A program made the translations under genes and the position numbers. The notes beneath the pieces are model-generated. The model did no database searches. It had not been told where the DNA came from and saw nothing but the letters and a program-made list of their open reading frames with translations. A stretch of 64,000 nt of DNA from assembly GCA_965207885.1 (NCBI GenBank), contig OZ242311.1, positions 1,312,001 to 1,376,000 on the forward strand, given 5' to 3'. Of the stretch, positions 18,303 to 61,930 are shown piece by piece (within the stretch, counting starts at the first letter, position 1; each line of letters begins with the position of its first letter). The DNA comes from Candidatus Latescibacterota bacterium (GTDB lineage Bacteria; Latescibacterota; UBA2968).

Positions 18303-18335
18303 AAAAATAAGTTAAAAGTCGAACTTCTGGAGCAA

Positions 18336-22164: not shown

Positions 22165-22179
22165 TTCACACCTCAATTT

Positions 22180-24120: not shown

Positions 24121-24129
24121 GGGAGAAGC

Positions 24130-25734
24130 CTAAACACCTGTCTTGAGCACATGGCGTTGCAAGCCGGGAATGTGAACCTCTTTTACGTAAGAGGGCCAAT
24201 TGATGCGCGAAACATCACAATTAAAAATTTCTCTATCTTCTGCATCCATGCTGTCAAACAACTGATTCATATTGTCGTTTTGAAATACGCAATCCAGAGA
24301 AATATAAGAACCATAAATATCGGTAAGCGACAGCGTATTTTCCAAAGTGGCATTCAAAATCGACAAATGGCGTTTCTGCTTTGAAATATCGACCAGAGGC
24401 ACCAAATTCAGTGCCCGTTGCAAAATTTTGAGGGGCAACAAATACTTATAGCGCAACTTTCGACGAAATTGTGACAGCGTCGGATAGGTCCACGGCGTCA
24501 CCGCAATGGGTTTGCCATTGCGGTCTCGCATTGGATTGTTCACAAAATACTCGTACACATACTGGACGACCTCACCTACCTTCACCGGATTCTTTGCACT
24601 TGTTGTCACATGGTAAACCTTCAAATCGGCATTTTCATGGATGGAAGGCAAAACACCGATAATCACATTGATAATAATATCCACGGGAATAACGTCTAAA
24701 ACCGCTTCTGGACGCGCGGGAAAATCCGTCAAACGCCCCTTGCCGTAGTGTACAATAAGTGGATCGGCCACTTTTAGCCCTTCCAGCCATCCCGGTTCTG
24801 GATCGGACAAACTGCTCTCAATAATAGAAGGGCGCACGATCACAGTTGGCAAATCGCCCCGGGTCTTGGCAACCATCTGCTCGCCCATGGCCTTGGTAAA
24901 AGAATAACTGTCGTGCCAGCCCAACTCTCGCCCGCGCTTTATCCCGCGTGCCACCATCCGTTCTCGCACCCATCGCTGGCGCAAAGCCTCCAACTGGTGT
25001 TCCCGCCGATGCGCTGTAACGCGCTTGCCCCGGTCCTGTCGGTCGAGTAAACGCGTGAATTCCGCAAACCGCTCCGGACTTCGCGACGCCGCCTCTACTT
25101 CGCGGCTATACGCCAGAATACCTTCAATTTCAGAATCCAGACTATAATCGGGCGCGCGACCATTTCCCATTTGTTGTGCCACCGTTTGATCGGGCACGGG
25201 CGCGTCTTCAGAAATGATCCGCTTTTGCCGTCCATTGACATAAGCCGTTGAAACATGCACGAGCACGGCATCGCGACACGCCTTGGCAAATTCGACAACG
25301 CGCCTGGCCCCAAGCGTATTTTGCATCAGCGCCGTATCCAGAGGCGCGTCGAAAACCACATTGGCTGCGCTGTTAATCACAATATCGACTTCACTGGCCA
25401 ACTGTGCATATGTCTCGGCGTCCATGCCGAGGTGATCTTGTGTCAAATCGCTCGGCACCGCAATGACTTTTTCGCGCATCACAAAGTCAAAACGATCCCC
25501 GAGTTTTGCGCGCAATCGCGCAAAAGCACTGGATTGCAAAATCTCCCTTTGCAGCCGGTCTTCGGCACTAATGGGCTTGCCCCCTCCCCGCCTTTGAGGG
25601 CGCACCATAAGATAAATGCGCCCAACATCTGGCGCATGGCAAAGGATTTTCCCCACCAATCCCTTGGCCAAAAAACCAGTTGCACCCGTAACAAAAAGAA
25701 CCTTGTGGTTCAAAAATGGAATAACAACACTCAT
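24130..25734 (-). CDS. Fatty acyl-CoA/ACP reductase (alcohol-forming FAR)
   Basis: VTGATGFLAK, HVSTAYV, YSFTKAMGE, RPSIIES..PEPGWLEG, DVIPVD and a C-terminal Sterile domain (FNCDVSRINW..HIPGL). Confidence 0.9.
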   Translation of the reverse strand: MSVVIPFLNHKVLFVTGATGFLAKGLVGKILCHAPDVGRIYLMVRPQRRGGGKPISAEDRLQREILQSSAFARLRAKLGDRFDFVMREKVIAVPSDLTQDHLGMDAETYAQLASEVDIVINSAANVVFDAPLDTALMQNTLGARRVVEFAKACRDAVLVHVSTAYVNGRQKRIISEDAPVPDQTVAQQMGNGRAPDYSLDSEIEGILAYSREVEAASRSPERFAEFTRLLDRQDRGKRVTAHRREHQLEALRQRWVRERMVARGIKRGRELGWHDSYSFTKAMGEQMVAKTRGDLPTVIVRPSIIESSLSDPEPGWLEGLKVADPLIVHYGKGRLTDFPARPEAVLDVIPVDIIINVIIGVLPSIHENADLKVYHVTTSAKNPVKVGEVVQYVYEYFVNNPMRDRNGKPIAVTPWTYPTLSQFRRKLRYKYLLPLKILQRALNLVPLVDISKQKRHLSILNATLENTLSLTDIYGSYISLDCVFQNDNMNQLFDSMDAEDREIFNCDVSRINWPSYVKEVHIPGLQRHVLKTGV

Positions 25735-25795
25735 AAAAGACCCCGGTATCCACAAAAAAAATTAAAACGCAACAGCACTAAAAACCACCTTCCCA

Positions 25796-32189: not shown

Positions 32190-33029
32190 GTGACACAATA
32201 CGATCCCCCCAAATGGCGTTTCCTGAATACCCAACATGGAAACGCCTTTTTTAATATGGCAGTAGATGAAGCCCTCGTGCGCTCGATAGCAACAGGTGCT
32301 CGGCCCGCATTTCGCGTTTACGGGTGGCAACCGCCCGCGGTCTCCTTTGGATATGCACAGCGCATCAGCCGCGAAGTCGATGCCCAAAAAGTTCGCGAGC
32401 GCGGTATCGACATTGTCCGTCGTCCCACCGGTGGCCGCGCTGTCTTGCACTGGAACGAACTGACCTACAGCGTTGTCTGCCCTGCCGACAATCCCGTGAT
32501 GGGGGGCAATATCAACGAAGCCTATCGCAAAATCAGCGAAGGCCTCCTGGCGGGTATTCGCGCTCTCGGCGTCGATGCGACCTTTGAATCCCGTCGCCAA
32601 ACACAGCCCTCACCGCGCGGCAAAGAACTCACCGCGCCCTGTTTTACCAGTACGGCGCAATACGAAGTCACATTTAAGGGGCGCAAACTCATCGGCAGCG
32701 CGCAACAGCGCATCGGTACAATGCTCTTGCAACACGGATCACTCCTGCTCGGCGCAGAGCACAAACAAATCGCCGACCTTCTGCCCGGCGACAAACCAGG
32801 CCTACAAAAGCGTTTTGCACGCGAACTCGACCGCCACACCACCTCGCTCTCTGAAGCTCTCGCATACCCCATCAATTTCGACACGGCGGCCACAGCCATC
32901 CGGCAAGGCATTCAAAATACCTTTAACATCCAACTTGTTGAAGCCTCACTCAGCGAAACAGAAATCGCCGAAACCCAACGCCTTATCGCCGAGAAATACG
33001 CAACCTATGAATGGAATGACAAGTATTGA
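32190..33029 (+). CDS. Lipoate-protein ligase/octanoyltransferase (LipM/LplA-like)
   Basis: NMAVDEAL, RRPTGGRAVLH, KLIGSAQ, QHGS. Confidence 0.88.
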   Translation: MTQYDPPKWRFLNTQHGNAFFNMAVDEALVRSIATGARPAFRVYGWQPPAVSFGYAQRISREVDAQKVRERGIDIVRRPTGGRAVLHWNELTYSVVCPADNPVMGGNINEAYRKISEGLLAGIRALGVDATFESRRQTQPSPRGKELTAPCFTSTAQYEVTFKGRKLIGSAQQRIGTMLLQHGSLLLGAEHKQIADLLPGDKPGLQKRFARELDRHTTSLSEALAYPINFDTAATAIRQGIQNTFNIQLVEASLSETEIAETQRLIAEKYATYEWNDKY

Positions 33030-33438
33030 TTCTTCAAAGGCCTGGACCTCGCATCCCTTGCGCGAAGAGCCTTTGGCAAAATCTGTTTTACTCGTGCTCA
33101 TCATCCTGGGCGTCGCGTTTATTGTCGGCGTGAGCTTTCAGAGCATCTCTTTCGCCTTTCTTTCACTCGCATTGCTCACCGCGGCGATGACCCGCTATTT
33201 TTTCACAACGCGCTATGTTATCGACCCTCGCGGTTTTACCATTTCACATATCGGTATGCGCAGGCAGTATTTGTGGACAAATTTTCGCCGCGCCGCACGC
33301 CATCCCAACGGCGTCTTCTTAAGTCCTTTTGCCAAACCGCATCGCCTCGACACATTTCGAGGTCAATTCCTGCGCTCGAAAAACCCCGCTGAGATCTACC
33401 ATGTCGTCCAAAAACACATCGCTATTGACCCGACTTAA
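33016..33438 (+). CDS. Hypothetical membrane protein (2 TM plus small beta domain)
   Basis: Two hydrophobic helices and GVFLSPF..P.RLD.FRG. Overlaps both neighbours. Confidence 0.6.
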   Translation: MTSIDSSKAWTSHPLREEPLAKSVLLVLIILGVAFIVGVSFQSISFAFLSLALLTAAMTRYFFTTRYVIDPRGFTISHIGMRRQYLWTNFRRAARHPNGVFLSPFAKPHRLDTFRGQFLRSKNPAEIYHVVQKHIAIDPT

Positions 33439-33754
33439 AAATTATTGCACCCATGCCTTTGCCGTTTCTCCCCCCGAAAGTGCTATCACTGAAGACGATG
33501 AAGTTCTCGCCGAAAAAGCCGCCGCCTTCATCGTGAGGCGCAGACTCACAGCGCCAGCTATTATGTTACTTGAAACCGGGCGACCCTTTAACTATATTGG
33601 CAGCCAACTTTTGACTTTTTTGTCGCCCTTCGTATCCATCATCTTCTCCTCAACAGCCGAGTTTGACCGCTTCACGCGCTTTCTGGAAAAACGGGAAAGC
33701 ATTCCCTGCCTCATTCGCCATATTGAAACCCTGGAAAACAAAAACCATGGATAA
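33401..33754 (+). CDS. Conserved hypothetical protein upstream of the GlmL-like gene
   Basis: EKAAAFIVRRRLTAPAIMLLETGRPFNYIGSQLL. Coupled to the next gene. Confidence 0.6.
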   Translation: MSSKNTSLLTRLKNYCTHAFAVSPPESAITEDDEVLAEKAAAFIVRRRLTAPAIMLLETGRPFNYIGSQLLTFLSPFVSIIFSSTAEFDRFTRFLEKRESIPCLIRHIETLENKNHG

Positions 33755-35534
33755 ACTCGACGTCATCATCGCTACCGATTGCGGCAGCACCACGACCAAA
33801 GCCATCTTGATAGAAAAAAAGGGCGATGTCTATCGCCAGACCTATCGAGGCGAAGCACCTACCACAGTTGAAGCCCCCTATGAAGACGTCACGCGCGGCG
33901 TACTCAACGCCATTCAAGAAGTCGAAGAACTCTCTAACAGACAAATTCTCGACGGCGAAACCATCATCACACCCGCAGAAGATCATCGCGGGGTTGACAT
34001 CTACATTTCTACCAGCAGCGCAGGCGGCGGTCTGCAAATGATGGTCGGCGGCGTCATTCAGGCCATGACCGGCGAAAGCGCACAGCGCTGCGCCCTCGGC
34101 GCAGGCGCAATTGTCATGGACATTCTCGCGTCCAACGACGGGCGGCAGCCCCACGAAAAAATCGAACGCATTCGCCAGTTGCGCCCCGATATGGTGCTCC
34201 TTTCGGGCGGCACAGATGGCGGCACCATTTCGCACGTTGTCGAACTGGCCGAATTCATTTCGGCAGCCGACCCCAAACCGCGATTTGGATCGGGATACCA
34301 ACTGCCCGTCATTTACGCTGGAAACAAAGATGCCGCGCAGGAAATCGAACGCACCCTGGGCGACAAAACTGCCCTCACCATCACGGAAAACATCCGCCCC
34401 ACGCTCGAAGAAGAAAACCTTGGACCAGCTCGCCACGTGATCCACGACCTCTTTCTCGAACACGTCATGGCGCAAGCACCGGGCTATCGAAAACTCATCT
34501 CCTGGACAGGCGCACCCATCATGCCCACGCCCGGCGCAGTTGGCCTCATGATGCAAACCGTATCCAAACAACAAAATATCAATGTCGTGGGCGTTGACAT
34601 AGGCGGCGCCACCACCGACGTATTCAGCGTCTTTGACGATATCTTCAACCGCACGGTATCTGCCAATCTCGGCATGTCCTACAGCGTATCCAACGTACTC
34701 GCCGAAGCGGGCCTCAACGATGTCATGCGCTGGGTGCCTTTCAAAATCGACGAAGCCGACCTGCGAGACCGCATCAAAAACAAAATGATCCGCCCCACCA
34801 CAATTCCGCAAATGCTCGAAGAACTTCAGGTCGAACAGGCCATTGCCCGCGAAGCCTTGCGCCTGGCCTTTATCCAGCACCGTGCACTGGCCGTGGGTCT
34901 CAAAGGCGTACAGGCAGAGCGCACCCTGTCCGATGTATTCGACCAATCCGAAGGCGGCGAAAGCCTCATCAAAATGCGCGACCTCGATCTCCTCGTCGGA
35001 AGCGGCGGCGTTCTATCTCACGCTCCGCGTCGAATGCAAACAGCCGCTATGCTCATTGACGCCTTCCAGCCCGAAGGCATCACGCGCCTCGCCGTTGACA
35101 GCATCTTTATGATGCCACACCTCGGCGTGCTTTCATCGGTCAACGAAATCGCCGCCACGCAGGTTTTTGAACGCGACTGCCTCATTTACCTCGGCACCTG
35201 TATCGCACCCATCGCCCAGGGCAAAATCGGCACGCCCTGTGCGCAATACGAAATCGGCCTTCCCGACGGAACCCAATCGGGCACCCTGAATATTGGCGAT
35301 CTTCTACATTTCCCGCTCGAAGCAGGTCAGGAAGCACACCTCACCTTACAGCCCGAGCGCAACACAGACGCAGGTGCCGGGCCGGGCCGAGAACTGAACA
35401 CCACAGTCAAAGGGGGCACCGCCGGGCTGATCCTTGACGGACGCGGGCGCCCCATTGTATTTGCCGAAAATCAATCCGAACGCGCCGATCAAATAAGCCA
35501 GTGGAGCGAGACCCTCGACCTCTATCCCCGGTAA
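33747..35534 (+). CDS. GlmL/MutL(Clostridium)-family ASKHA ATPase
   Basis: IATDCGSTTTKA, SSAGGGL, GGTDGG, MPTPGAV, VDIGGATTDVFS, GSGGVL. Confidence 0.85.
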   Translation: MDKLDVIIATDCGSTTTKAILIEKKGDVYRQTYRGEAPTTVEAPYEDVTRGVLNAIQEVEELSNRQILDGETIITPAEDHRGVDIYISTSSAGGGLQMMVGGVIQAMTGESAQRCALGAGAIVMDILASNDGRQPHEKIERIRQLRPDMVLLSGGTDGGTISHVVELAEFISAADPKPRFGSGYQLPVIYAGNKDAAQEIERTLGDKTALTITENIRPTLEEENLGPARHVIHDLFLEHVMAQAPGYRKLISWTGAPIMPTPGAVGLMMQTVSKQQNINVVGVDIGGATTDVFSVFDDIFNRTVSANLGMSYSVSNVLAEAGLNDVMRWVPFKIDEADLRDRIKNKMIRPTTIPQMLEELQVEQAIAREALRLAFIQHRALAVGLKGVQAERTLSDVFDQSEGGESLIKMRDLDLLVGSGGVLSHAPRRMQTAAMLIDAFQPEGITRLAVDSIFMMPHLGVLSSVNEIAATQVFERDCLIYLGTCIAPIAQGKIGTPCAQYEIGLPDGTQSGTLNIGDLLHFPLEAGQEAHLTLQPERNTDAGAGPGRELNTTVKGGTAGLILDGRGRPIVFAENQSERADQISQWSETLDLYPR

Positions 35535-35619
35535 GAGAAAGGCCATAATTTAAATTTATTTTCTTGTAAAGTAACCCACGCATTGTATATTCCGTTATCC
35601 GTAACCCAGGTATTACTCT

Positions 35620-36738
35620 ATGGCACACGCATACACACCCGGTCTTCGCGTTACCCCACAGACCCTTCTTCAACGCCAGCGCCAACTCCCCCTCAAAGGT
35701 GAAGTCGTCGTATCACAAGGCGATAGCGTGACGCGCGATCAGGTCGTTGCCCACACGCACTTGCCCGGCAACGTCACCACTCTCAATCTGGTCAATATCC
35801 TGAGTTGCACACCAGAAGAATTGCCCAATTACATGCTCAAACGCGAAGGCGACCCCGTCGAAGTAGGCGAACCCATTGCCGAAACCCGCCCCTTCATCAA
35901 ATGGTTCAAAACCACCGTTAAAGCACCTATTAGTGGCACCCTTGAAAGCATCTCCAAAATCACTGGACAGGTCATCTTTCGCGCCCCTCCGCGCCCCGTT
36001 CAGGTACAGGCATACATCGATGGCAACATAGTTGAAATCCTGCCCGAAGAAGGCGTCATTGTCGAAACCACAGGTGCATTTGTGCAGGGCATCTTTGGCG
36101 TAGGCGGTGAGACCTGGGGACCTCTACACGTCATCTCCGAAGAGCCAGATCAAATATTAACCCCCGACCAAATCGACGACTCGTGCGCGGGAAAAATCGT
36201 CGTAGGCGGCAATTTGCTCACTCTCGATGTGATCGACAAAGCGCGGGAAATCGGCGCCGTTGGCATCATTGGCGGCGGCATCCGCGACGCCGACTTGCGC
36301 GACCTGCTCGGTTACGACCTCGGCGTAGCCATCACCGGCACCGAAAATATCGGCCTCACCGTCATCCTCACCGAAGGCTTTGGCTCCATCTCAATGGCGC
36401 ACAAAACCTTTGGCATACTGAGCGAAAACAACGGCAAAGAAGCCTCTGTCTCGGGCGCCACCCAGATCCGCGCAGGTGTTCTGCGTCCCGAAATCATCAT
36501 TCCAGAATCCAGCATCCACGAACAAACCGAAGAATCCGATCATCCGGGCCTCATCGAAGGGGCACTCTTGCGCGTGATTCGCGCGCCCTATTTTGGTCAG
36601 GTGGGCAAAGTCACGGCACTGCCACCCGAATTGCAAACAGTCGAATCCGAAACCCATGTGCGCGTACTCGAAGTCGAATTTGACAATGGCGAACGCGCCA
36701 CTGTCCCGCGTGCCAACGTCGAACTCATCCAAGAGTAA
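35620..36738 (+). CDS. Conserved hypothetical protein with barrel-sandwich-hybrid-like and C-terminal KOW/SH3-like segments
   Basis: EGDPVEVGEPIAE...KAPISGTLE, VILTEGFG, GATQIRAGVLRPE, VIRAPYFGQVG...VPRANVE. Confidence 0.7.
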   Translation: MAHAYTPGLRVTPQTLLQRQRQLPLKGEVVVSQGDSVTRDQVVAHTHLPGNVTTLNLVNILSCTPEELPNYMLKREGDPVEVGEPIAETRPFIKWFKTTVKAPISGTLESISKITGQVIFRAPPRPVQVQAYIDGNIVEILPEEGVIVETTGAFVQGIFGVGGETWGPLHVISEEPDQILTPDQIDDSCAGKIVVGGNLLTLDVIDKAREIGAVGIIGGGIRDADLRDLLGYDLGVAITGTENIGLTVILTEGFGSISMAHKTFGILSENNGKEASVSGATQIRAGVLRPEIIIPESSIHEQTEESDHPGLIEGALLRVIRAPYFGQVGKVTALPPELQTVESETHVRVLEVEFDNGERATVPRANVELIQE

Positions 36739-36760
36739 ACGACCCATCGGGAGATTGCGT

Positions 36761-37966
36761 ATGAGATATTTTTTAACTTGCATCACACTCGTGCTCTGCA
36801 CGGCACAGGTGTATGCACAACAACCCACCGGTGTCAAAGCAGAAGACACCCCCAACGACTCGGGAGGCAGCATCACCGTTGTGTGGAACCGCGCAGAACT
36901 TCCCGACGGTGCAATGTATAAAATTGTAGTCAGTGAATCGGAAACCGGTCCTTTTCACCCCGCAGCCAATATCGACCCATCGGGCAACCTGCAATCCAGC
37001 GATCCAGGCACTTTTGGGCATGGCGAAGAAACATCCCAAATGCACTTTGCCAAAATCGCTGAATATACTGATCCCACCGATCCGTCTAAAAAGATCGCCA
37101 TCGAAAACGGCAAAACCTATTATGTACAGGTTATATCCCTATCTCCCTCTGGCGAATCATTTCCCTCTGCAGTCGCAAGCGCAGAAGCGTCTGAAAATTT
37201 ATTCAACTTCCTCAAAACCAATAATTTCATCATCGGCACGATCTTCTCCCTCATCATTTTAGGCGGCATTTTCCTCGCCCAAAAACGCGAACTCTTCATC
37301 CGCCGCATCGCCGGTCTCGAAGCCCTTAACGAAGCCCTCGGTCGCGCAACTGAAATGGGCAAACCCGTGCTTTTTGCACACGGATTGCATCCCATGGGTA
37401 GTGTTTCTACCATTGCGGCGATCAATGTTCTCGCGCGCGTGGCAAATCGCACTGCCGAATTTAACACCGAATTGCGCGTGGCCAACAATGATCCCGTAGT
37501 AATGGCTGTGAGTCAGGAGGTCGTCAAAGAATCCTATCTCAACGCAGGTCGGCCCGATGCCTACTCAGAGGACATGGTCTTTATGGTTGCCACCGAGCAA
37601 TTCAGCTATGCCGCAGCTCTCGACGGCATGATGGTGCGCGACAGACCAGCTACCAATATCATGATGGGCTATTTCTACGCAGAATCGCTCTTGCTGGCAG
37701 AAACAGGTGCTTCCATAGGCGCAATCCAAATCGCGGGTACTGACTCCTACACCCAACTGCCCTTTTTCATTACCACCTGTGACTATACGCTCATGGGCGA
37801 AGAACTCTATGCGGCAAGCGCGTATCTCGCCCGCGAACCCAAATTGCTGGGTAGCCTCAAAGGTCAAGACATCGGCAAAGCAGTGCTCTTAATCGTCATG
37901 ATTTTGGGCACGATCCTGGCGACTCTTGGAAGTCAAACACTCACGCATATTTTCACGGCATATTAG
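36761..37966 (+). CDS. DUF6754-like membrane protein with N-terminal FN3-like extracytoplasmic domain
   Basis: Signal peptide, DTPNDSGGSITVVW, IRRIAGLEAL.EA.GRATEMGKP, QLPFFITTCDYTLMGEELYAASAYL. Confidence 0.7.
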   Translation: MRYFLTCITLVLCTAQVYAQQPTGVKAEDTPNDSGGSITVVWNRAELPDGAMYKIVVSESETGPFHPAANIDPSGNLQSSDPGTFGHGEETSQMHFAKIAEYTDPTDPSKKIAIENGKTYYVQVISLSPSGESFPSAVASAEASENLFNFLKTNNFIIGTIFSLIILGGIFLAQKRELFIRRIAGLEALNEALGRATEMGKPVLFAHGLHPMGSVSTIAAINVLARVANRTAEFNTELRVANNDPVVMAVSQEVVKESYLNAGRPDAYSEDMVFMVATEQFSYAAALDGMMVRDRPATNIMMGYFYAESLLLAETGASIGAIQIAGTDSYTQLPFFITTCDYTLMGEELYAASAYLAREPKLLGSLKGQDIGKAVLLIVMILGTILATLGSQTLTHIFTAY

Positions 37967-37980
37967 CAGAGGATTCTTTC

Positions 37981-38637
37981 ATGCTTTTTTTAAGACGTAC
38001 TCTTCCGCTAATCATCGCCTTTGTCCTGGGTATGATTGGCATTCTCGTTTTCTATATCCCATACAGCGGTGCTCAAAGTCTCGAACAAGAATTGGCAACA
38101 TGGGATCGAATTGTCGCTGCCTTTGCTATGATATTGGGCATCTATAGCCTGATGCGATTGCACTGGAACCGCGTTCAACGCCAGCAAGCTGCATGGGGAT
38201 ATAGTTTCCTGGTATTCGTGGGTTTTGTAATTACAACTCTCTTTGCAATCTACAATGATGGTATAGGTCCATTCGAGCCACAGGTACTCAATTCGGGACC
38301 TTTTGACTGGATGTATAAATACGTCCAGGTACCTGCCGATGCCACCATGTTCTCCATACTCGCGTTTTTCATCGCCTCGGCAGCCTATCGCACTTTTCGA
38401 GCCCGCACGCCCGAAGCGGCAATCCTGCTCGTATCCGCCATTATCGTGATGATCGGCCGTGTACCCATTGGCGCGTCAATTTACCATGGACTTCCCGAAA
38501 TTGCCCAGTGGATGATGGATGTGCCCAATCTGGCAGCCAAACGCGGCATCTTGCTCGGCGTCAGCCTTGGTGCTGTCGCCACGGCATTGCGTATCATCTT
38601 TGGCATCGAACGCTCTTATCTCGGCGGAGGTGAATAA
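37981..38637 (+). CDS. Integral membrane protein (about 6 TM)
   Basis: TMFSILAFFIASAAYRTFRART.EA, and LRIIFGIER.YLG. Confidence 0.75.
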   Translation: MLFLRRTLPLIIAFVLGMIGILVFYIPYSGAQSLEQELATWDRIVAAFAMILGIYSLMRLHWNRVQRQQAAWGYSFLVFVGFVITTLFAIYNDGIGPFEPQVLNSGPFDWMYKYVQVPADATMFSILAFFIASAAYRTFRARTPEAAILLVSAIIVMIGRVPIGASIYHGLPEIAQWMMDVPNLAAKRGILLGVSLGAVATALRIIFGIERSYLGGGE

Positions 38638-39467
38638 TGAAAGAATTTTTGCTCAATATCGACCGCCGCATCATCTTCATTTTTGTCGCGCTCGGCATCA
38701 TCATTCCATCGTTGGCAGCCGTGCGCCTGCCTATTCCCATCACAAAAGATGTGAAAGCGATTTACGACACCATCGAAGAAGTGAGTGCAAAAAACGGCAC
38801 CATTCTCATCTCCTTTGACTACGGTCCCGGCTCCATGCCCGAAGTACAGCCCATGGCCCTTGCAGTTTTGCGCCACTGTTTTCGCAAAAATGTCAAAGTT
38901 GTTGGAATGTCTCACTGGCCAACTGCTGTGGGGCTTGCACAAGAAGCATTTGATACCGCATCAAAAGAATTTGTCACACAATACGGTGAGGATTATACGT
39001 ATCTGGGTTATAAACCGGGTGGGGGTTCTCTGGTCATCAATATGGGCAGAAACTTTCACGATGCATTTCAAAAAGATTTGCAAGGTAGCGATACGACCGA
39101 ATTACCTGTCACCAAAAACATAAAGGGATTGGCGGACTTCGACTATGTGATCTGCCTGGCATCGGGCAACACACCCGATGGGATATGGATACCTTTCGGG
39201 CAAGAACGCTACAAATTCAAATTTGGCATTGGCTGTACTGCTGTTATGGCACCCGATCAATACCCCTATTTGCAATCGGGCCAAATGAACGGCATGATGG
39301 GCGGATTGGCCGGTGCCGCCGAATATGAAACCCTGATTGAAACATCGGACAAAGCCACCGCAGGCATGGGTGCACAATCCTTTGTTCATCTCATCATCAT
39401 CGCCTTCATCATATTGGGCAATGTGATGTACTTCCTCTATGGCCGCCAGAAAGGGGGCGTCCAGTGA
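38637..39467 (+). CDS. Membrane-anchored protein, possibly a distant relative of the DUF6754 protein
   Basis: N- and C-terminal TM helices. SFDYGPGSMPE, YPYLQSGQ..G.MGGL.GAAEYE. Confidence 0.7.
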   Translation: MKEFLLNIDRRIIFIFVALGIIIPSLAAVRLPIPITKDVKAIYDTIEEVSAKNGTILISFDYGPGSMPEVQPMALAVLRHCFRKNVKVVGMSHWPTAVGLAQEAFDTASKEFVTQYGEDYTYLGYKPGGGSLVINMGRNFHDAFQKDLQGSDTTELPVTKNIKGLADFDYVICLASGNTPDGIWIPFGQERYKFKFGIGCTAVMAPDQYPYLQSGQMNGMMGGLAGAAEYETLIETSDKATAGMGAQSFVHLIIIAFIILGNVMYFLYGRQKGGVQ

Positions 39468-40195
39468 AACGCGATCATATAATTTTTATTGCCTTCTTGT
39501 TCCTCTTTGCCGCCATCAATATTTACCTCTTTGGCTCAGACAAGCTCTCTCTGGATTGGGCCGGCTTTGGCATATTTATTGCGGCTGGCATTACCCTGTC
39601 GCTTTACAGCTTTCTCTACGAAGACAACCCCCTCTTCAAATTTGCCGAAAATCTCTATGTAGGAGTCGCAGCCGCGTACACGCTCACACAGGTCTGGTAC
39701 AACGTGCTTTTGGTCGATGTCGTGAATCCCCTCTCCGAACTCGGCAGCGAAAGCATGAACAACTTGTGGCTCATTGTCCCCACATTGCTCGGTTTCTTTA
39801 TGCTCACCCAACTCTCCTCAGCAAAATTTAGCTGGCTCAGTCGTATCGCATTCGCGTTTGTGGTTGGCCTGGGATCGGGGCTGGCTATTCCGCGCACCAT
39901 TGCGGCCAATGTTTTGGCTCAACTAGAACCGACCATGCAACCCATAACAGCCACCTGGGCTGGATTAGACCTCTTCATTATTCTGGTCGGTGTCGTTACA
40001 GTACTCGTGTATTTCTTTTACTCTGTCGAACACACTGGCCCCGTGGGCGTGGCGTCCAAAATCGGTATCTGGTTCCTCATGATCTCGTTCGGTGCATCAT
40101 TTGGCTACACCATCATGGCGCGTCTCTCGCTGCTGATTGGGCGCGTCGGATTCTTACTTGAAGACTGGCTCGTGCTCGAATTGCCTCTATTTTGA
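39464..40195 (+). CDS. Integral membrane protein
   Basis: YSFLYEDNPLFKFAENLYVG, FLMISFGASFGYTIMARLSLL. About 7 TM. Confidence 0.75.
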   Translation: MKRDHIIFIAFLFLFAAINIYLFGSDKLSLDWAGFGIFIAAGITLSLYSFLYEDNPLFKFAENLYVGVAAAYTLTQVWYNVLLVDVVNPLSELGSESMNNLWLIVPTLLGFFMLTQLSSAKFSWLSRIAFAFVVGLGSGLAIPRTIAANVLAQLEPTMQPITATWAGLDLFIILVGVVTVLVYFFYSVEHTGPVGVASKIGIWFLMISFGASFGYTIMARLSLLIGRVGFLLEDWLVLELPLF

Positions 40196-40280: not shown

Positions 40281-41243
40281 ATGCCCAATTCCGTGCTGAC
40301 AGTTGACAACCTCCAAACGCATTTTCACACAGACAGCGGAACAGCGAGGGCGGTAGATGGTGTATCATTCACACTCAACAAGGGCGAAACTTACGGCCTT
40401 GTTGGTGAATCGGGGTGCGGAAAAAGTGTTACTTCGCTGTCAATCATGCGATTGGTACCTCATCCTGGCCGCATTGAAGGTGGGCATATTTTTTTTCAAA
40501 ACCGAGACCTGGTATCCCTTTCGGATACCGAAATGCGCGACATACGCGGCAATGACATTGCCATGATCTTTCAGGAACCCATGACCAGCCTCAACCCGGT
40601 TTACACCTGTGGGTTCCAGATTGATGAAGCCGTGAGGCGGCATCAGGGATTAGAAAAAACAGAAGCGCGAAAAAAAACAGTTGAAATGCTCCACCTCGTG
40701 GGCCTGCCCGATCCCGAGCAACGCGCAAACGAATACCCGCACCAATTATCGGGCGGACAACGCCAGCGCGTCATGATCGCCATGGCCCTCTCGTGCAATC
40801 CCAAAGTGCTGATAGCCGACGAACCCACAACAGCACTCGATGTCACTATTCAGGCGCAAATCCTGGACCTGTTGCGCGACTTGCAACAACAACTCGGCAT
40901 GGCCGTCCTGCTCATCACACACGATTTGGGTATTATTGCCGAAGCCGCCGATCAGGTCGCGGTCATGTACGCAGGCAAAATTGTAGAAACCGGACCATCA
41001 GATGCGATCTTTCACAACCCCAGGCATCCTTACACGCAGGGTTTACTCGCATCAGTACCCCGTCTGGATATCGCGAATAATCGCCTCAGAACCATTCCGG
41101 GCACAGTGCCCGAAGCCACGCGATTTCCACCGGGATGTCGATTTGCAGATCGATGTGAAAAAGTCGATTCAATTTGCAGGGAAACCACACCGCAACTGCA
41201 ACCAATTGACGGCGATCACCAGACCGCATGTTGGATGGCATAA
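40281..41243 (+). CDS. Oligopeptide/dipeptide ABC ATPase (OppD/DppD-like)
   Basis: [24 protein letters not shown] and C-terminal Cys motif. Confidence 0.92.
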
Positions 41244-41254
41244 GGCGAGAAATA

Positions 41255-42205
41255 GTGCTTCTTCAAGTTCAAAAACTAAAAAAATACTACCCCATTTCTC
41301 AGGGACTCTGGGGGCGCAACGCCGGGCATGTCAAAGCAGTAGATGACGTGAGCTTCGATATCTCTCCCGGCGAAACCCTCGGCCTGGTCGGCGAATCCGG
41401 ATGCGGAAAAACCACAACGGGACGCGCTATCTTGCGCCTTATTGATGCAACATCAGGCACCGTGCGATTCAAAAATACCGACATCCTCTCCCTGGGAAAA
41501 AAACAACTTCGAACACTGCGCCGGCACATGCAAATCATCTTTCAGGACCCTTACGGATCGCTCAACCCCCGTCTCACCATTGGCGGCATCCTCTCGGAAC
41601 CCCTGAAAATCCACGGCGACAAAACAAAAGATCGAGTCGCCGACCTGCTCAACACCGTGGGCTTATCTCCTGACGTCGCCCGCCGATATCCGCACGAATT
41701 TTCCGGTGGACAGCGACAGCGCATTGGCATTGCCCGCGCATTGGCTGTAAAACCGCAATTCATTGTCGCGGACGAACCCGTGTCTGCACTCGACGTATCG
41801 ATTCAGGCACAAATTGTAAACTTGCTCCAGGATTTACAGACACAGTTCGGCCTCGCCTATCTCTTTATCGCGCACGACCTGAGCGTGGTCAAACACATCT
41901 CCAACCGCGTGGCAGTCATGTACCTGGGCAAAATTGTCGAACTGGCAGAAAGCCAGGAACTCTACGACAATCCGCAGCATCCCTATACACGCGCATTGCT
42001 CTCATCAATCCCCATACCCGACCCGCGCGTCAGGGGATCGCGCACCATTTTAACAGGCGATGTGCCCAGCCCGGTCAACATACCTTCGGGTTGTGCATTT
42101 CATCCGCGCTGTCCCGAAGCAACGCCGGACTGCGCCCACCGCAAACCCGAACTCTTAGACATCGAACCCGGTCACAGCGTGGCCTGTATCTTGCGGCACA
42201 ACTAA
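41255..42205 (+). CDS. Oligopeptide/dipeptide ABC ATPase (OppF/DppF-like)
   Basis: [32 protein letters not shown]. Confidence 0.92.
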
Positions 42206-42253: not shown

Positions 42254-45200
42254 GTGAAGGTCTTCAAAATATTAACGTTGCTGTGCCTCACCGGCCTCAT
42301 ATCCCACACCGTCCAGGCACAGCCCCCCTCTTTAGGTCCCGCCAAAGCCATTGGGGTTGACCTCGCCAATACCCCGCTGAACCGTCCGTCTCCCGATCAG
42401 AAAAGCTACACCTATTGGAAGCCCGAAACAGCCGACGGCTTTTTTCCATCGCTTTTGGGACTGCGTACGGCTGGCGCTCAAATGATCCGCACCAGATATT
42501 TCAATATCTACTTCTCTACAGCCGAAAAAACCGCCCGTCACATTGCCGATTTCTGCGATGAGGTTCTCTCGAATCTCATGCGCCATTACCCCACCTTTGT
42601 CGATCGCATTGCACCCATCCACGTCGTCGTTGACGATCAGGCGGATTATCTGGGCAATGCCTTTGCCGTGTACAGCGCCAATTACATCCACTTTTGGACC
42701 AACCCCATCGACTGGGAAATCCGCGGCACCAGTGACTGGGTACGCAATGTTTTTGTCCATGAACTCGCCCACATCGTAACACTGAAAGCCGCCTATAAGG
42801 GCTTGCCATTCCAAATTGGCATAGTCAACGCCTCTCGCGCCAATGAAAATCCCGATTTCAGCTTTACACTTGGCCTGTATCACCTCGCTGTCAACTCGGG
42901 TTTTGCCGAAGGCATCTCGCAATACGAAGCCACCGAATACGGCGACGACCGCTGGGACACACACCGCGATATGCTCCTGCGCATGGCCGCGCTCGAAAAT
43001 GACTTACTCTCCCTCCCCAGCATGGGGCAACTCGGCGGCAAGGGCAATTTCCACGGCGAAATGGTCTATAATCAGGGATATGCCATGCTCAACTACATTG
43101 GCGAACGCTTTAGTCCGAGTGTCGTCAGACAGATCTTTGAACACAGACCCATTATCAACTTCAACTCCTCGCTCAAAAAAGCCACTGGCGTATCGGCCAA
43201 ACAACTCTACCGCGACTGGAAAGCGCATATCGAAGAACAATACAGCGCAGTTCAAAGCGACATCCAAGAAGCCGGCGAACGCGAAGGCGAATTGATCGTC
43301 GATAGGGGCAATTTGGACTATCACCCGGTCTATTCCCCGCAAGGCGACAAGCTGGGCTTTATCTCCAACGACGACAGCGACTATTTCATCACCGAACTCA
43401 AAGTGATGGATCTCACCACCAAAAAAGTCACAAAAATAGCCGACCGCGTCGATAATCGCTTTGTCTGGACAGCCAGCGGCGACAGCCTGATGTACATCAA
43501 AGCCGTAGGCGCGCGTTGGGACATCTTCACCTATGACATCAAAACGAAAAAAGAAACCCGCGTCACCGTTGGTCTGCGCGGCAAAGACCCCACCCTCTCC
43601 CCCGATGGCAAACAAATCGCCTTTGTAACCATGAGAGATGGCACGGCGAACATCGGCCTTGTAAACACCGACGGCACCGATGTGCGGTACCTCACAAATA
43701 ACAACGACGCCACACAGTATTTTGGCCCAAAATGGTCGCCCGACGGCAAACACCTGCTCTTCAGCATATTCCGCACGGGCGAAGACCGCGACATTGCCAT
43801 CATCGACGTGAATGCCACAACCTGGGAAAAGAAAAAAGGCCGGCGTTCGCTGGAAAAAAAAGAAGTTGACACACAACTCGACAGCCTCCAGCAGGCAAAA
43901 GCCGACAGCCTCAAGGCATTTCCCGACAGCCTCGCCTATGCCAACAATGCCAACTTCAAAGCCATCGTACACTCCACAGCCGACGAACGCGATCCCGTCT
44001 GGCTGCCCGATGGCAGTGGATTTGTCTTCAGTTCGGACCGCACGGGCATCTTCAACCTCTACACCCACGACATGGCCACCGGAGAACAAAAGCAACTGAC
44101 CAATGTTGTGGGCGGCGCGTTTTTGCCCACGATATCCCCCGACGCCAAAGACGTGATCTACGCAGGGTATCATGCAGCGAACTACAACCTCTACCGCATT
44201 CCCCTATCCGAGGCCGTTGCCGTTGATCCCCCCGAGGGTATTGCGCGAGACTATGCCGAAATTTACACCGGCAAATCCATCACCGACCTTCACGACATCG
44301 GAAGGTATTCCACGCGCCTCGTCTCCTACGGCATCACACCCATCGCATTGCTGGGCCCCACATTTATCGGCAACCGATTCGGCCTGGATCAAATCAGCGC
44401 GGGTGTTCAATGGGCCTGGGGCGACCTGCTCGGCAGCGACGTTTTTGTAACCACCGCCCTGATCGGCAAAAACTTCAGACGGCAACAAGACTTCAACTCG
44501 GAATTCGCCTTCTACTACCAGAACAGCCTCACCCCCATTCTATCTGAACAAAGCACCTATGTCCCCCGCATCTTCTTTGGAGGCAGCAGGCAAACCATCA
44601 ACAGCATCGTGGATTTGGGTACCGTCCAAACCGTGCGCGATACACTGACCGGCACATTGATCACTCAAAACGACGAAGGACAACAGGTTTTAATCCCCAA
44701 TGTCACGCAGCACTTAGACCTCACGGTCACAGAAGAAGACGATTTTAAGGATGTATTCTCCGATTTTACGGTAGGCGCCGAAATGGGGGTAGGCCGCGGA
44801 CACTATTTCAGTCTGGCCTATGGCTACCGCAAGTATTCTGAAAACCTGCACGCCGTTCAGGTCCTCCACGACAGCTCTCGCGTCTTTCAGACCAATTTGG
44901 GGACAGGTGAGGTTGAAGACATCACCGATCAGATTCCCGGTCCGGGCTATGCATCGCAGGAAACCCTTCTCGACGATTTTCTCTACAAAGAACTCGACTT
45001 CTTCAAAAGTAACGAATGGATGGGCGGTTGGAGCTACATCACCCTCAAACCCGCCACCGACCTCTACATCAACCCATCGGGCGGTCGCGCATTATCCTTC
45101 CGCTATCGGCGCATCAACGCAACCGTGATAGATTCGCTGGCCCGCACGCCAGATCTGAACGAGGACTTTGTCCCGGATGCAATCGGCGAAGACCTGTCAC

Positions 45201-45829
45201 CCGCATTTTTCCGGGGCGATAAAGTCAACGTGGGATTCAACGAATACATCGCCTCCTTCAATGAATTTATCCCGCTCGTTGGCCGCTCAACACTCGCCCT
45301 ACAGGTCTTTGGAGCCTACAAAGACAGCTACGTTAAAGAAGTACAACAAGAAGGCGGCACATTTGAAGGCGTATTCTATTACCCCCTGCGCTATTATCTC
45401 GGTGGTCTGGGCACCTTGCGCGGCTATCCGTATTTCACAATCGCAGGCGGCAAAGCCCTCTTTGGTCGCACCACGCTGACCCTGCCCATCTTTAAGCACA
45501 TCGGTGCGGAACTGCCGCCCCTCTTTTTTGACAAAGTTTACGCCTCGCTCTTCTTTGAGTTTGGCGGCACATCCAATGCCGCCAGCATCGGCGATATTTT
45601 TGACGTAAATGAAGAAGTACACAGTGGGCGGTGGGACAAATTCAAAGACTCTTTCCTATTCGACTACGGCGCCGAAATTCGATTCCAGGTGTTTTCACAT
45701 TACCGCTTGCCCATGTTCGGCTATTTCATAGTTGCCCGTCCCACCAAACTCGAAGTCCCGTCCCGCAACAATCCCGACATTATCGAAGAAGTAAGCGGGA
45801 TGCGATTCTATTTTGGCCTGTCATTGTAA
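42254..45829 (+). CDS. Peptidase MA-like + PD40 propeller + Omp85-like barrel (paralog of 4837-7878)
   Basis: HELAH...FAEGISQY, DRWDTHRDMLLR, WSPDG repeats, GGLGTLRGYPY. Confidence 0.75.
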   Translation: MKVFKILTLLCLTGLISHTVQAQPPSLGPAKAIGVDLANTPLNRPSPDQKSYTYWKPETADGFFPSLLGLRTAGAQMIRTRYFNIYFSTAEKTARHIADFCDEVLSNLMRHYPTFVDRIAPIHVVVDDQADYLGNAFAVYSANYIHFWTNPIDWEIRGTSDWVRNVFVHELAHIVTLKAAYKGLPFQIGIVNASRANENPDFSFTLGLYHLAVNSGFAEGISQYEATEYGDDRWDTHRDMLLRMAALENDLLSLPSMGQLGGKGNFHGEMVYNQGYAMLNYIGERFSPSVVRQIFEHRPIINFNSSLKKATGVSAKQLYRDWKAHIEEQYSAVQSDIQEAGEREGELIVDRGNLDYHPVYSPQGDKLGFISNDDSDYFITELKVMDLTTKKVTKIADRVDNRFVWTASGDSLMYIKAVGARWDIFTYDIKTKKETRVTVGLRGKDPTLSPDGKQIAFVTMRDGTANIGLVNTDGTDVRYLTNNNDATQYFGPKWSPDGKHLLFSIFRTGEDRDIAIIDVNATTWEKKKGRRSLEKKEVDTQLDSLQQAKADSLKAFPDSLAYANNANFKAIVHSTADERDPVWLPDGSGFVFSSDRTGIFNLYTHDMATGEQKQLTNVVGGAFLPTISPDAKDVIYAGYHAANYNLYRIPLSEAVAVDPPEGIARDYAEIYTGKSITDLHDIGRYSTRLVSYGITPIALLGPTFIGNRFGLDQISAGVQWAWGDLLGSDVFVTTALIGKNFRRQQDFNSEFAFYYQNSLTPILSEQSTYVPRIFFGGSRQTINSIVDLGTVQTVRDTLTGTLITQNDEGQQVLIPNVTQHLDLTVTEEDDFKDVFSDFTVGAEMGVGRGHYFSLAYGYRKYSENLHAVQVLHDSSRVFQTNLGTGEVEDITDQIPGPGYASQETLLDDFLYKELDFFKSNEWMGGWSYITLKPATDLYINPSGGRALSFRYRRINATVIDSLARTPDLNEDFVPDAIGEDLSPAFFRGDKVNVGFNEYIASFNEFIPLVGRSTLALQVFGAYKDSYVKEVQQEGGTFEGVFYYPLRYYLGGLGTLRGYPYFTIAGGKALFGRTTLTLPIFKHIGAELPPLFFDKVYASLFFEFGGTSNAASIGDIFDVNEEVHSGRWDKFKDSFLFDYGAEIRFQVFSHYRLPMFGYFIVARPTKLEVPSRNNPDIIEEVSGMRFYFGLSL

Positions 45830-46893: not shown

Positions 46894-48462
46894 ATGCCAG
46901 AGCGACCAAATATTTTGCTGATTATGAACGACGATATGGGCTATTCTGATATTGGATGTTACGGAGGTGAAATCCACACGCCAAATTTAGATCTACTTGC
47001 TGCCAATGGGTTGCGATTCACCCAATTTTACAACACAGCGCGGTGCTGCCCTACGCGGGCATCGCTGCTCACGGGATTGCACCCCCATCAAGCCAGTGTG
47101 GGACACATGATGGATGACCGGGAATACGAAGGGTATCGGGGCGATCTGAACTTTAAGAGCGTAACCATTGCCGAAGTACTCAAGACCGTGGGATATGCGA
47201 CCTATATGAGCGGCAAATGGCATATTACGCGGCATACAGATGCAGACGGTCCCAAACACAGTTGGCCCTGTCAGCGCGGATTTGATCGCTTTTTTGGCAT
47301 CATTACCGGTGCCGCCAATTATTGGAAGCCACAAACACTCACACGAGACAACGAGCAAATTACAGTGGATGAATTTCCAGAGGATTTCTTTTTGACCGAC
47401 GCCATCAGCGATCAGGCAGCGGATTATATCCGCGAACACGCGCAGACAAACGGAGATCAGCCATTCTTTTTATATACCGCATATACCGCACCCCATTGGC
47501 CCCTGCACGCGCATGATGAAGATATTGCAAAATACAAAGACCGTTTTGCCGCGGGATGGGATCAACTGCGCGAAGAGCGTTTGGCGCGCATGCGCGAAAT
47601 GGGCATCTTGAAACCCGAATGGGGACTGAGCGACCGCGACCCTTCTCAAGTGCCCTGGGAAGAAGCCGATCACAAGGCGTGGCAGCAACGGCGCATGGAA
47701 GTCTATGCCGCACAAGTCGATCGCATGGATCAGGGCATTGGGCGCATCGTCCAATCCCTCGAAGAGACCGGGCAACTGGACAACACCCTGATCGTATTTT
47801 TAGCCGACAATGGGGGATGTGCCGAAGAGCTGGGAGGCGGCATGAGACGCAGCGCGATTGCACCGGCCACCACGCGCAATGGACGGCCAGTCCAACGCGG
47901 CAACGATCCAAACATCATGCCGGGTGACGAAACCACGTACCAGAGCTACGGCGTACCCTGGGCCAATGTATCCAACACGCCATTTCGCCTGTACAAGCAC
48001 TGGGTTCACGAAGGCGGCATTGCAACGCCCTTTATCGTACACTGGCCCGCTCATGTAACAGATCACGGCACATTGCGCGAGCAACCCGGCCAGCTTACCG
48101 ATGTCATGGCAACCTGTCTCGATATATCGGGCGCCGAGTATCCCGAGACCTATAATGGACACGAGATTTTGCCACTCGAAGGTACATCGCTGACACCGAT
48201 CTTTGATAACCAGGACAACGGCAAAGAATATCTGATCTGGGAACACGAAGGCAATGGCGCAGTTCGCAAAGGCAAGTGGAAACTGGTCAAGCGCTACCCG
48301 GGCGATTGGGAGCTATACGATATTGAAGCCGACAGATCGGAACTCGACGATCTGGCAAATGACAATCCCGATGTCGTATCCGAACTCGCGGCAATTTACG
48401 ACGCCTGGGCAGAGCGTTGTGGGATTGAGCCCTGGGCCAATATCCTCGCAAAGCGCGGGTAA
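46894..48462 (+). CDS. Arylsulfatase (FGly-dependent)
   Basis: DDMGYSD, CCPTRASLLTG, GKWH, YTAPHWP. Confidence 0.92.
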   Translation: MPERPNILLIMNDDMGYSDIGCYGGEIHTPNLDLLAANGLRFTQFYNTARCCPTRASLLTGLHPHQASVGHMMDDREYEGYRGDLNFKSVTIAEVLKTVGYATYMSGKWHITRHTDADGPKHSWPCQRGFDRFFGIITGAANYWKPQTLTRDNEQITVDEFPEDFFLTDAISDQAADYIREHAQTNGDQPFFLYTAYTAPHWPLHAHDEDIAKYKDRFAAGWDQLREERLARMREMGILKPEWGLSDRDPSQVPWEEADHKAWQQRRMEVYAAQVDRMDQGIGRIVQSLEETGQLDNTLIVFLADNGGCAEELGGGMRRSAIAPATTRNGRPVQRGNDPNIMPGDETTYQSYGVPWANVSNTPFRLYKHWVHEGGIATPFIVHWPAHVTDHGTLREQPGQLTDVMATCLDISGAEYPETYNGHEILPLEGTSLTPIFDNQDNGKEYLIWEHEGNGAVRKGKWKLVKRYPGDWELYDIEADRSELDDLANDNPDVVSELAAIYDAWAERCGIEPWANILAKRG

Positions 48463-55298: not shown

Positions 55299-55319
55299 GA
55301 AAATCTCTTATGATGTATT

Positions 55320-61180: not shown

Positions 61181-61930
61181 ATGAGCATTGAACAGGCGCG
61201 TGCTGCCGTTGAATCCGGCGATGTACATACCCTGAAAAAACTGATAGCAAAAGATCCGCAACTGGTCAATAAAACCACATCGGACAATCCCCGCACACTT
61301 CTGCACACACTCTGCGACTATCCCGCGCACAGACCCAGAGGCCGCGAATCCGCAGAAATTTTGATACGTTCAGGCGCAAATGTAAATGCGCGGGCAAAAT
61401 TCGAGGGAAAAACCGACCCTGGCGAAACACCCCTGCATTGGGCAGCCAGCAGCGACGATGCGGAAATGATTGAAATACTTCTCGACAGCGGTGCAGAAAT
61501 CGACATCGATGGCGGGAATATTGCAAACGGCACACCGCTCTGGGAAGCCGTGATATTCGGCATGCAAAACGCAGCGATAAAACTAATCCAGCGCGGGGCA
61601 ACCTGCAACCTGATGATCGCTGCTGGCGCGGGGCAACTCGATCTCGTTGAGAAATTTTTCGATAAGGAAGGCAATATAACCGATACGGCGGGCGTCCTGC
61701 CCGGATGGTCGGAACCACGATCTGCGCGAGATTGTATCGACAGTGCCTTCGGAATGGCCTGCCGCAATGGGCACCTCGAAACCGCCAGATGGTTGCTGGA
61801 GAAAAAACCGGATATCAACCGCAAAAATCCCGTTGGCGAAACGCCTCTGGATCAAGCTGTGGACAGAAAACACACCGAAGTTGCGAACTGGTTGATGACA
61901 ATTGGCGCGAAACGATCCACGAACTTATAA
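61181..61930 (+). CDS. Ankyrin-repeat protein
   Basis: GETPLHWAAS, GTPLWEA, ACRNGH, GETPLDQA. Confidence 0.88.
   Translation: MSIEQARAAVESGDVHTLKKLIAKDPQLVNKTTSDNPRTLLHTLCDYPAHRPRGRESAEILIRSGANVNARAKFEGKTDPGETPLHWAASSDDAEMIEILLDSGAEIDIDGGNIANGTPLWEAVIFGMQNAAIKLIQRGATCNLMIAAGAGQLDLVEKFFDKEGNITDTAGVLPGWSEPRSARDCIDSAFGMACRNGHLETARWLLEKKPDINRKNPVGETPLDQAVDRKHTEVANWLMTIGAKRSTNL

Follow-up and report, generated by a model that had tools for sequence, protein, structure and literature searches.

ATPases of the Pfam MutL/GlmL family (PF13941) have been described, in an excerpt of the relevant source, as chaperones in glutamate mutase reactivation (PMC4682846). The glycerol dehydratase reactivase, according to an excerpt of a second source, combines an Hsp70-like ATPase with a swiveling domain and an exchangeable beta subunit (PMC7674605). 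Here we analyze a locus in which an ATPase of the MutL/GlmL family is encoded beside a set of membrane proteins. The locus lies at positions 33016-40195 of a 64,000-nucleotide stretch of DNA from Candidatus Latescibacterota bacterium (assembly GCA_965207885.1, contig OZ242311.1, positions 1,312,001 to 1,376,000), which we refer to at its full length as the window, and it consists of eight tightly packed genes, all on the + strand, that we call g1 to g8. We conclude that g2-g8 are a real, widespread system that fits no known kind and that consists of two modules, one soluble (g2-g4) and one in the membrane (g5-g8). In the reading that we consider best supported, this system would be a membrane machine with an ASKHA ATPase. 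The open reading frames (ORFs) called in the window give the following genes:

33016-33438, + strand: g1, 140 amino acids (aa), a small membrane protein with a hydrophobic N-terminal stretch (ORF call and hydropathy)
33401-33754, + strand: g2, 117 aa, a small helical protein
33747-35534, + strand: g3, 595 aa, an ASKHA-fold ATPase of the Pfam MutL/GlmL family
35620-36738, + strand: g4, 372 aa, a soluble protein with a barrel-sandwich hybrid, an alpha/beta domain and a KOW-like barrel
36761-37966, + strand: g5, 401 aa, with a signal peptide, an FN3 domain, a transmembrane helix, a DUF6754 domain and a second transmembrane helix
37981-38637, + strand: g6, 218 aa, a polytopic membrane protein with about six hydrophobic segments (hydropathy)
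38637-39467, + strand: g7, 276 aa, with a soluble domain between two terminal transmembrane helices (hydropathy)
39464-40195, + strand: g8, 243 aa, a polytopic membrane protein with about six hydrophobic segments (hydropathy)

From these coordinates, overlaps exist between g1 and g2 (38 nucleotides, nt), g2 and g3 (8 nt), g6 and g7 (1 nt) and g7 and g8 (4 nt), and short gaps separate g3 from g4 (85 nt), g4 from g5 (22 nt) and g5 from g6 (14 nt). The original prediction, made from the letters of the window, had described eight co-oriented and often overlapping genes, and the coordinates bear this out. Its inventory of gene products also agrees with the domains, hydropathy and AlphaFold2 (AF2) models, but the order in which it gave the membrane proteins, with the two polytopic ones last, needs correction, as polytopic g6 lies between g5 and g7 and polytopic g8 follows g7. 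Its statement that the window lacks a B12 mutase holds as well: Pfam searches of 55 scanned window ORFs found no B12-binding, MM_CoA_mutase or Met_asp_mut_E domain. The products of g1, g2, g6, g7 and g8 belong to no Pfam family, and g5 is a member of a domain-of-unknown-function (DUF) family.

For a view of the locus across bacteria, we used DUF6754 as the anchor to collect 79 loci, each with at most 10 kb of sequence per side, and built iterated profiles of g1 to g8 to search the ORFs of these loci. In every locus with at least 2.4 kb of sequence after g5, g6, g7 and g8 followed g5 in the same order (66/66), and in 53 of the 69 loci whose upstream side could be tested, g3 and g4 lay immediately 5' of g5 with g2 before them. 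The gene order in these linked loci was invariably g2-g3-g4-g5-g6-g7-g8. The recurrence of these genes, identically ordered, in other phyla places the gene cluster far beyond chance, and the co-conservation on which the original prediction turned is what this neighborhood analysis of DUF6754 shows. Taxonomically, these 53 loci represent Latescibacterota, Nitrospirota, Planctomycetota (the anammox bacteria Scalindua and Anammoxibacter, along with Phycisphaerae and Planctomycetaceae), Methylomirabilota (Methylomirabilis) and Eisenbacteria. Gene by gene, g6 was present in all 79 loci and always right after g5; g8 was present in 71 of the 79, including all 66 with enough downstream sequence, and is the last gene of the conserved set; and g2, found in 51 of the 79, always stood immediately 5' of g3. 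No gene family in the flanks of the 79 loci recurred across phyla, so that the conserved unit is g2-g8 only.

The operon is widespread and uncharacterised across many little-studied bacterial phyla. The DUF6754 family comprises at least 2198 clusters at 50% identity (E<=0.001), with at least 621 confirmed matches in a collection holding one genome per species, and our literature searches found neither a mention of DUF6754 nor a description of a g2-g8 system. The closest homologues of g5 and g3 (94-98% identity) are in metagenome-assembled genomes labelled Latescibacteria, Latescibacterota or Gemmatimonadetes. In a tree of g3, Nitrospirota form one clade (support 100) and Planctomycetota form another (support 78), and the g6 tree likewise follows phyla. 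As the two trees agree in this respect, both modules look vertically co-inherited, and the genomic data indicate that an ATPase unit and a four-protein membrane complex have been passed on as a set, with their gene order kept, from a time that predates the split of these phyla.

The ATPase is the most conserved part of this system. Mean column identity was 67% for g3, compared to 47% for g4, 45% for g6, 43% for g7 and 28% for g8, and identity to the window copy of g3 was 67-69% in 23 Nitrospirota, 64-67% in 6 Planctomycetota and 69% in Methylomirabilis. Among 24 g3 orthologues, three motifs were invariant in all (D11-C-G-S-T-T-T-K18, D284-I-G-G-A-T-T-D291 and G418-S-G-G421); we take these motifs (DxGSTTTK, DIGGATTD and GSGG) to be the phosphate-1, phosphate-2 and adenosine motifs of ASKHA ATPases, respectively. 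Judged by sequence, the ASKHA nucleotide-binding motifs of g3 are intact. The pattern of g3 conservation indicates that the gene has long been inherited vertically, very strongly constrained, and speaks against recent transfer, and the fact that g3 is as conserved as core housekeeping proteins suggests an important role. Sequence searches for relatives of solved structure returned none for g3, g5 or their profiles.

Public records name relatives of g3 "glutamate mutase L" or "methylaspartate mutase". Together with membership of g3 in Pfam MutL, where it aligned over the whole model (422.5 bits against a cut-off of 27; E-value 2.5e-126), these names speak for a true GlmL that reactivates a B12 mutase encoded elsewhere and to which the neighboring genes are irrelevant. 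We give hardly any credence to this explanation. The g3 protein scored below all NCBIfam cut-offs, falling far short of those for the equivalogs GlmL (NF040745; 222.3 against 475) and Or-4 (NF040744; 200.9 against 600) and also below that for TIGR01319 (157.6 against 204.05), and it has an additional C-terminal domain of about 115 aa, as the last 116 aa lack a Pfam match. Scans of 16 representatives, drawn from the 24 flank families that recur most often in the 79 loci, of 44 flank ORFs around membrane modules that stand alone and, as noted above, of 55 window ORFs revealed no mutase; instead, g3 is fused to g4 in relatives and tied to DUF6754 operons. On the combined grounds of these scores, the additional domain and the lack of a mutase in the scanned surroundings, we rejected g3 as a GlmL equivalog. 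The "glutamate mutase L" or "methylaspartate mutase" label is very likely wrong for g3, and this mislabelling could mislead metabolic reconstructions.

The gene after g3 encodes a protein that appears to be its dedicated partner. When we searched for long homologues of g4, 73 of 74 carried PF13941 ahead of the g4 region, which corresponds to a g3-g4 fusion in gene order (this search was limited to long proteins, and the 73 are protein clusters). These fusions are about 990-1005 aa in length and come from Planctomycetota, Neomarinimicrobiota, Ozemobacteraceae and Aegiribacteria. Because they are fused in nearly all long homologues, we consider g3 and g4 to be a single functional unit. In ESM Atlas, g4 matched unnamed or weakly named clusters, in which the commonest taxa were Planctomycetota, Fidelibacterota, Zixibacteria and Chloroflexota.

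In its AF2 model (predicted local distance difference test score, pLDDT, 85.9), g4 starts with a barrel-sandwich hybrid like those of NqrA_N and RnfC_N, continues with an alpha/beta domain and ends in a small barrel. Foldseek matched this model at the level of single domains only; the C-terminal barrel resembles the KOW domains of Spt5/NusG (target-normalised TM-score 0.80-0.81). Pfam matches of g4 were weak and below cut-off (RnfC_N, 25.1 bits against 25.6; Biotin_lipoyl, 19 bits against 22.1), the Foldseek match to an NqrA structure was very weak (probability 0.16), and sequence searches of solved structures gave noise only for g4, as they did for g7. Invariant motifs of g4 are GVAITG.E, TEGFG and GATQIRAGV.RPE. 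Its lysines are not invariant (K94 in 19 and K97 in 18 of 26 orthologues), and we rejected g4 as a lipoyl or biotinyl carrier, as the barrel lacks a conserved modifiable lysine. An LplA/LipB-type lipoate/biotin protein ligase gene (32190-33029), whose 3' end overlaps the start of g1 by 14 nt, was likewise considered and rejected as a partner of g4, given the poor conservation of these lysines and the position of the ligase gene in relatives, where it does not adjoin the cluster (it is about 5 kb upstream in locus L001).

In 14 distant fusions that we scanned, the barrel scored as NqrA_N or RnfC_N, exceeding the NQRA_N cut-off in 2 of them, and 2 of the 14 (P0453 and P0455) carry an N-terminal Xre-type helix-turn-helix domain (HTH_3) before the GlmL-like ATPase, so that a distant g3-g4 branch may bind DNA or work in another context. 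A single cluster (P0391, 707 aa) is an apparent g4-g5 fusion in which the g5 signal peptide is kept as an internal transmembrane helix. This arrangement is topologically consistent, but the DUF6754 domain of P0391 is cut short, at position 128 of the 257 in the profile. The fusion probably arose as an artefact of assembly or from a frameshift, and we did not use it as evidence.

The membrane module is centered on g5, which matches PF20539 (DUF6754) over profile positions 2-257 of 257 (375.4 bits against a cut-off of 27; E-value 1.4e-112). The AF2 model of g5 (pLDDT 91.7) contains a signal-like helix, a beta-sandwich at residues 26-143, helices at residues 150-175 and 360-388, and, between these helices, a six-strand alpha/beta domain at residues 184-357 that corresponds to DUF6754. 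Pfam missed the FN3 domain, which we recognized from the similarity of the sandwich to FN3 structures (target-normalised TM-score 0.64-0.68, Foldseek); outside FN3, the Foldseek matches were weak and Rossmann-like (TM-score at most 0.32). Proteins of this family range from 229 to 1276 aa with a highly variable ectodomain: among 47 long DUF6754 members, 5 contain a BamB-like propeller, 2 contain fn3, and the remainder contain no Pfam family. The conserved part is elsewhere: of the 33 residues that are invariant in 40 diverse g5 homologues, nearly all lie within the alpha/beta domain or where the last helix begins, and the invariant residues include the block Q-x-PFF...CD...GEEL-x-AA-x-AY.

To place these domains relative to the membrane, we used counts of lysine plus arginine residues over orthologues. 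These counts predict that the DUF6754 domain is cytoplasmic and, for 36 g7 orthologues, that a domain of about 220 aa is periplasmic with both termini inside the cell. In this predicted topology, DUF6754 is the sole sizeable cytoplasmic domain of the membrane module. The polytopic proteins g6 and g8 both contain conserved arginines and acidic residues; R137, R188 and E210 are invariant in g6, and g8 has a conserved loop, Y-x-DNP-x-F-x-x-AE. Matches of g6 and g8 to Pfam were at noise level only, and g7 has no relative in Pfam, the PDB or among named ESM Atlas entries. Neither BLASTP nor hhalign detected that g5 is homologous to g7, or g6 to g8; by eye only, a shared G-T...P-(F/Y)...AA-x-Y pattern can be made out near the last transmembrane helix. 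Directly 3' of g8, 22 Nitrospirota loci (including L026 and L029) encode a Memo-like protein (PF01875, about 416-432 aa), an association that is lineage-specific.

The architecture of g4 and DUF6754 bears on the possibility that g3/g4 is a reactivase-like maintenance factor, which, in the manner of GlmL, EutA and the diol or glycerol dehydratase reactivases, would spend ATP to open DUF6754 so that a bound ligand or cofactor could be exchanged or released while the complex carries out its own chemistry or ion translocation. Such a role would accord with the chaperone function described for the family of g3 and with the makeup of the glycerol dehydratase reactivase, as the central domain of g4 weakly matches proteins of the swivelling fold (RraA, the pyruvate kinase C-terminal domain and rifampin phosphotransferase; TM-score 0.16-0.48, Foldseek) and DUF6754 is an alpha/beta domain. 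However, these TM-scores are all below 0.5, no reactivase structure was among the 50 listed Foldseek matches to the g4 model, and the invariant residues of DUF6754 show no cofactor signature, with no invariant histidine and one invariant cysteine. In addition, the conservation of g3 exceeds that of its supposed client, and we would regard this as unusual for a maintenance factor. We consider a reactivase-like role quite unlikely.

We also considered a morphogenetic or scaffold system like MreB-MreC-MreD-RodZ, in which g3 would organise bitopic and polytopic envelope partners. The actin fold of g3 and its 64-69% identity across phyla would suit such a role, since cytoskeletal proteins reach comparable cross-phylum identity, and the partners of g3 indeed comprise bitopic proteins with periplasmic domains and polytopic proteins. 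The ectodomains of g5 homologues, with their propellers and fn3 domains, are of scaffold type too. On the other side, the GlmL/hydantoinase branch is, to our knowledge, not known to polymerise, and we judge a scaffold very unlikely.

The reading that we favor, to which we assign a probability of roughly 45%, is that g2-g8 form one machine in which the g3/g4 unit docks on DUF6754 and ATP drives a change across the membrane. In this machine, g4 would be the obligate partner or dedicated adaptor of g3 in the soluble module, and g3/g4 would dock on the cytoplasmic face of the membrane module, most likely at the DUF6754 domain. The membrane module would present the alpha/beta domain of DUF6754 to the cytoplasm and a second alpha/beta domain, that of g7, to the periplasm, where the lineage-variable ectodomain of g5 (here one FN3 domain) would also be located. 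A cycle of ATP binding and hydrolysis by g3 could then cause a conformational change that is relayed by the transmembrane helices of g5, g6 and g8 and reaches the periplasmic parts, with the outcome that a substrate is moved or that a periplasmic or envelope process is switched. We base this reading on the synteny across phyla, the lone conserved unit, the g3-g4 fusions, the intact nucleotide-binding motifs, the apparent co-inheritance of the two modules, the density of invariant residues in DUF6754 and the tight gene spacing; the topology, taken from the residue counts above, the site of docking, the coupling to ATP and any cargo are inferred.

Several observations weigh against a single machine. 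In 16 of the 69 upstream-testable loci, the membrane module lacked g3 and g4 in the fetched flank (one of the 16 has g4 alone); these are from WOR-3, Poribacteria, Edwardsbacteria, Stahlbacteria, one Brocadiaceae, one Nitrospirota, one Latescibacterota-labelled genome and others. Five loci contain a second g5-g8 set. We know of no membrane transporter or complex that is powered by an ASKHA ATPase, and searches of g6, g7 and g8 against Pfam and NCBIfam returned no match to a transporter, ion-pump or secretion family. Finally, the one characterised role of the GlmL family, within the excerpt cited at the outset, is that of a chaperone in glutamate mutase reactivation and not that of powering a membrane complex (PMC4682846). 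The original prediction of a multi-subunit membrane machine with the GlmL-like protein as its ATPase is partly supported, namely by the co-conserved unit, by the lack of a linked B12 mutase in the window and the recurrent flanks, by the intact ASKHA motifs and by the g3-g4 fusions, and it is at odds with the modules that lack g3 and g4; the transporter that it offered as an example is a guess.

These unlinked loci are the main reason to consider that g2-g4 and g5-g8 are two separate neighbors, the former a soluble enzyme or chaperone that depends on ATP and serves a cytoplasmic client of its own and the latter a self-sufficient secondary transporter or structural complex. The 16 unlinked modules stand alone amid unrelated housekeeping genes, the second g5-g8 sets lack their own g2-g4, and the helix-turn-helix domains in 2 of the 14 scanned distant fusions hint that the soluble module has other contexts. 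On the g6 tree, linkage to g4 switches at least 5 times; the copies that lack it belong to a WOR-3-like clade, to Poribacteria or to the second copies. What argues against independent systems is that at least five named phyla contribute to the 53 of 69 loci in which the modules adjoin directly and keep one order, that the genes surrounding them are otherwise not conserved, and that the trees of g3 and g6 both follow phyla. We treat separate systems as the main rival to the single machine, and as an unlikely one.

If the favored reading of one machine is correct, a further and more tentative proposal is possible, namely that g2-g8 represent an ATP-driven machine of a new class, situated in the inner membrane or spanning the envelope. 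Such a class might use an actin-fold motor with the adaptor g4, in place of an ATP-binding cassette (ABC), AAA+, P-type or rotary ATPase, and might carry alpha/beta domains on the cytoplasmic as well as the periplasmic side. Nitrospirota, Planctomycetota (including anammox bacteria), Methylomirabilota, Latescibacterota, Marinimicrobia and allied phyla could have inherited it vertically, as a housekeeping system of ancient origin, and it would have been overlooked because model phyla do not have it. If the two modules do work together, they would provide a new way to couple ATP to a membrane process. The system is present in organisms of the nitrogen cycle (Nitrospira, anammox bacteria and Methylomirabilis) and in sponge symbionts.

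The two small proteins at the start of the cluster differ in their conservation. An alignment of 23 g2 sequences, which are 28-51% identical to the window copy, contains the invariant residues A53, P62, Q69, P76 and R98 and the conserved core R-x-x-APA..FLES..PLNF(L/I)GSQ; g2 matched no Pfam family. Homologues of g1 were found in 18 of the 79 loci, mainly in Latescibacterota, and because only these loci have it we consider g1 to be a lineage-specific addition. Pfam gave no family for g1 at E<=0.01 and noise at E<=1.

In the remainder of the window, the genes fabH, fabD, fabG, acpP, fabF and rnc lie upstream of the LplA-like gene. We found no Rfam RNA or riboswitch in the window or in 7 of the loci, promoter-like sites across the scan occurred at chance level with no informative site, and terminator-like sites numbered 25 compared to a mean of 15.0 in shuffled sequence. 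A PADLOC search for defense systems matched none of the 8 proteins. Two insertion sequence (IS) copies of 1200 nt, each encoding a DDE_Tnp_1 transposase, are present at 17105-18304 and 55318-56517; they are 100% identical and inverted, and they enclose 37 kb that include the entire g1-g8 cluster. This pair could be an inversion substrate, could behave like a composite transposon, or could mark an unreliable spot in the assembly. Downstream of g8 are two OppD/OppF-like ABC ATPase genes (40281-42205) with no adjoining permease gene, followed by a gene at 42254-45829 whose 1191-aa product looks paralogous to the 1013-aa product of 4837-7878, both having PD40 repeats and a Peptidase_MA_2-like region. 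These downstream genes are kept in the related loci L001-L004, L010 and L016.

Three adjoining genes on the - strand (20332-25755) encode a fatty acyl-CoA reductase-like protein (NAD_binding_4 and Sterile; 24130-25755), a 646-aa ORF product that belongs to no Pfam family (22180-24120) and an FAD-linked oxidase (FAD_binding_4 and FAD-oxidase_C; 20332-22176), a set that we would liken to ether-lipid clusters of the alkylglycerone-phosphate synthase type. Ankyrin-repeat proteins, two sulfatases and an alpha-L-fucosidase are also encoded in the window (13542-14459 on the - strand, 61181-61930 on the + strand, 46894-48462, 49239-50657 and 50667-51905), and gene content of this kind is often reported from sponge-associated symbionts.

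In comparison to known systems, g3 is closest to GlmL/MutL (PF13941, NF040745) and Or-4 (NF040744), with which it shares a Pfam family and the ASKHA fold over about 470 aligned residues. Unlike these proteins, g3 scores less than half of the equivalog cut-offs, has its C-terminal extension, is accompanied by g4 and a membrane module in place of a mutase, and is much more conserved across phyla. The DdrAB/GdrAB reactivases, in which an Hsp70/actin-fold ATPase and a swiveling-type domain act on an alpha/beta partner according to the excerpt of their description (PMC7674605), could be paralleled by g3, the central domain of g4 and DUF6754. They differ in that we found no sequence match or significant structural match and no B12 enzyme, and in that the presumed client here is an integral membrane protein. 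With NqrA and RnfC, of the Na+-NQR and Rnf complexes, g4 shares the type of its N-terminal barrel, whereas the g1-g8 set contains no flavin or Fe-S domains; kinship with Rnf/Nqr beyond the barrel type was rejected (hhalign of g4 against E. coli RsxC, probability 0.7%), as was the idea that g6 and g8 are relatives of RnfA/E (NqrD/E) (RsxA, 0.6%; RsxE, 0.2%). Type IV pili (PilM-PilN-PilO) and type II secretion (GspL) also combine, in one operon, a cytoplasmic ASKHA-fold protein with bitopic partners that have periplasmic domains, and both are powered by separate hexameric ATPases. None of g1-g8 has a Pfam match to PilM, PilN, PilO or GspL, and no secretin or pilin genes are conserved nearby. Although g3 is an ASKHA and not an ABC protein, and g6 and g8 show no homology to ABC membrane domains, the mechanotransmitting (type VII) ABC systems FtsEX, MacB and LolCDE offer an analogy, and an analogy only, for how g2-g8 might work, as in these systems a cytoplasmic ATPase drives periplasmic domains through a small transmembrane bundle.

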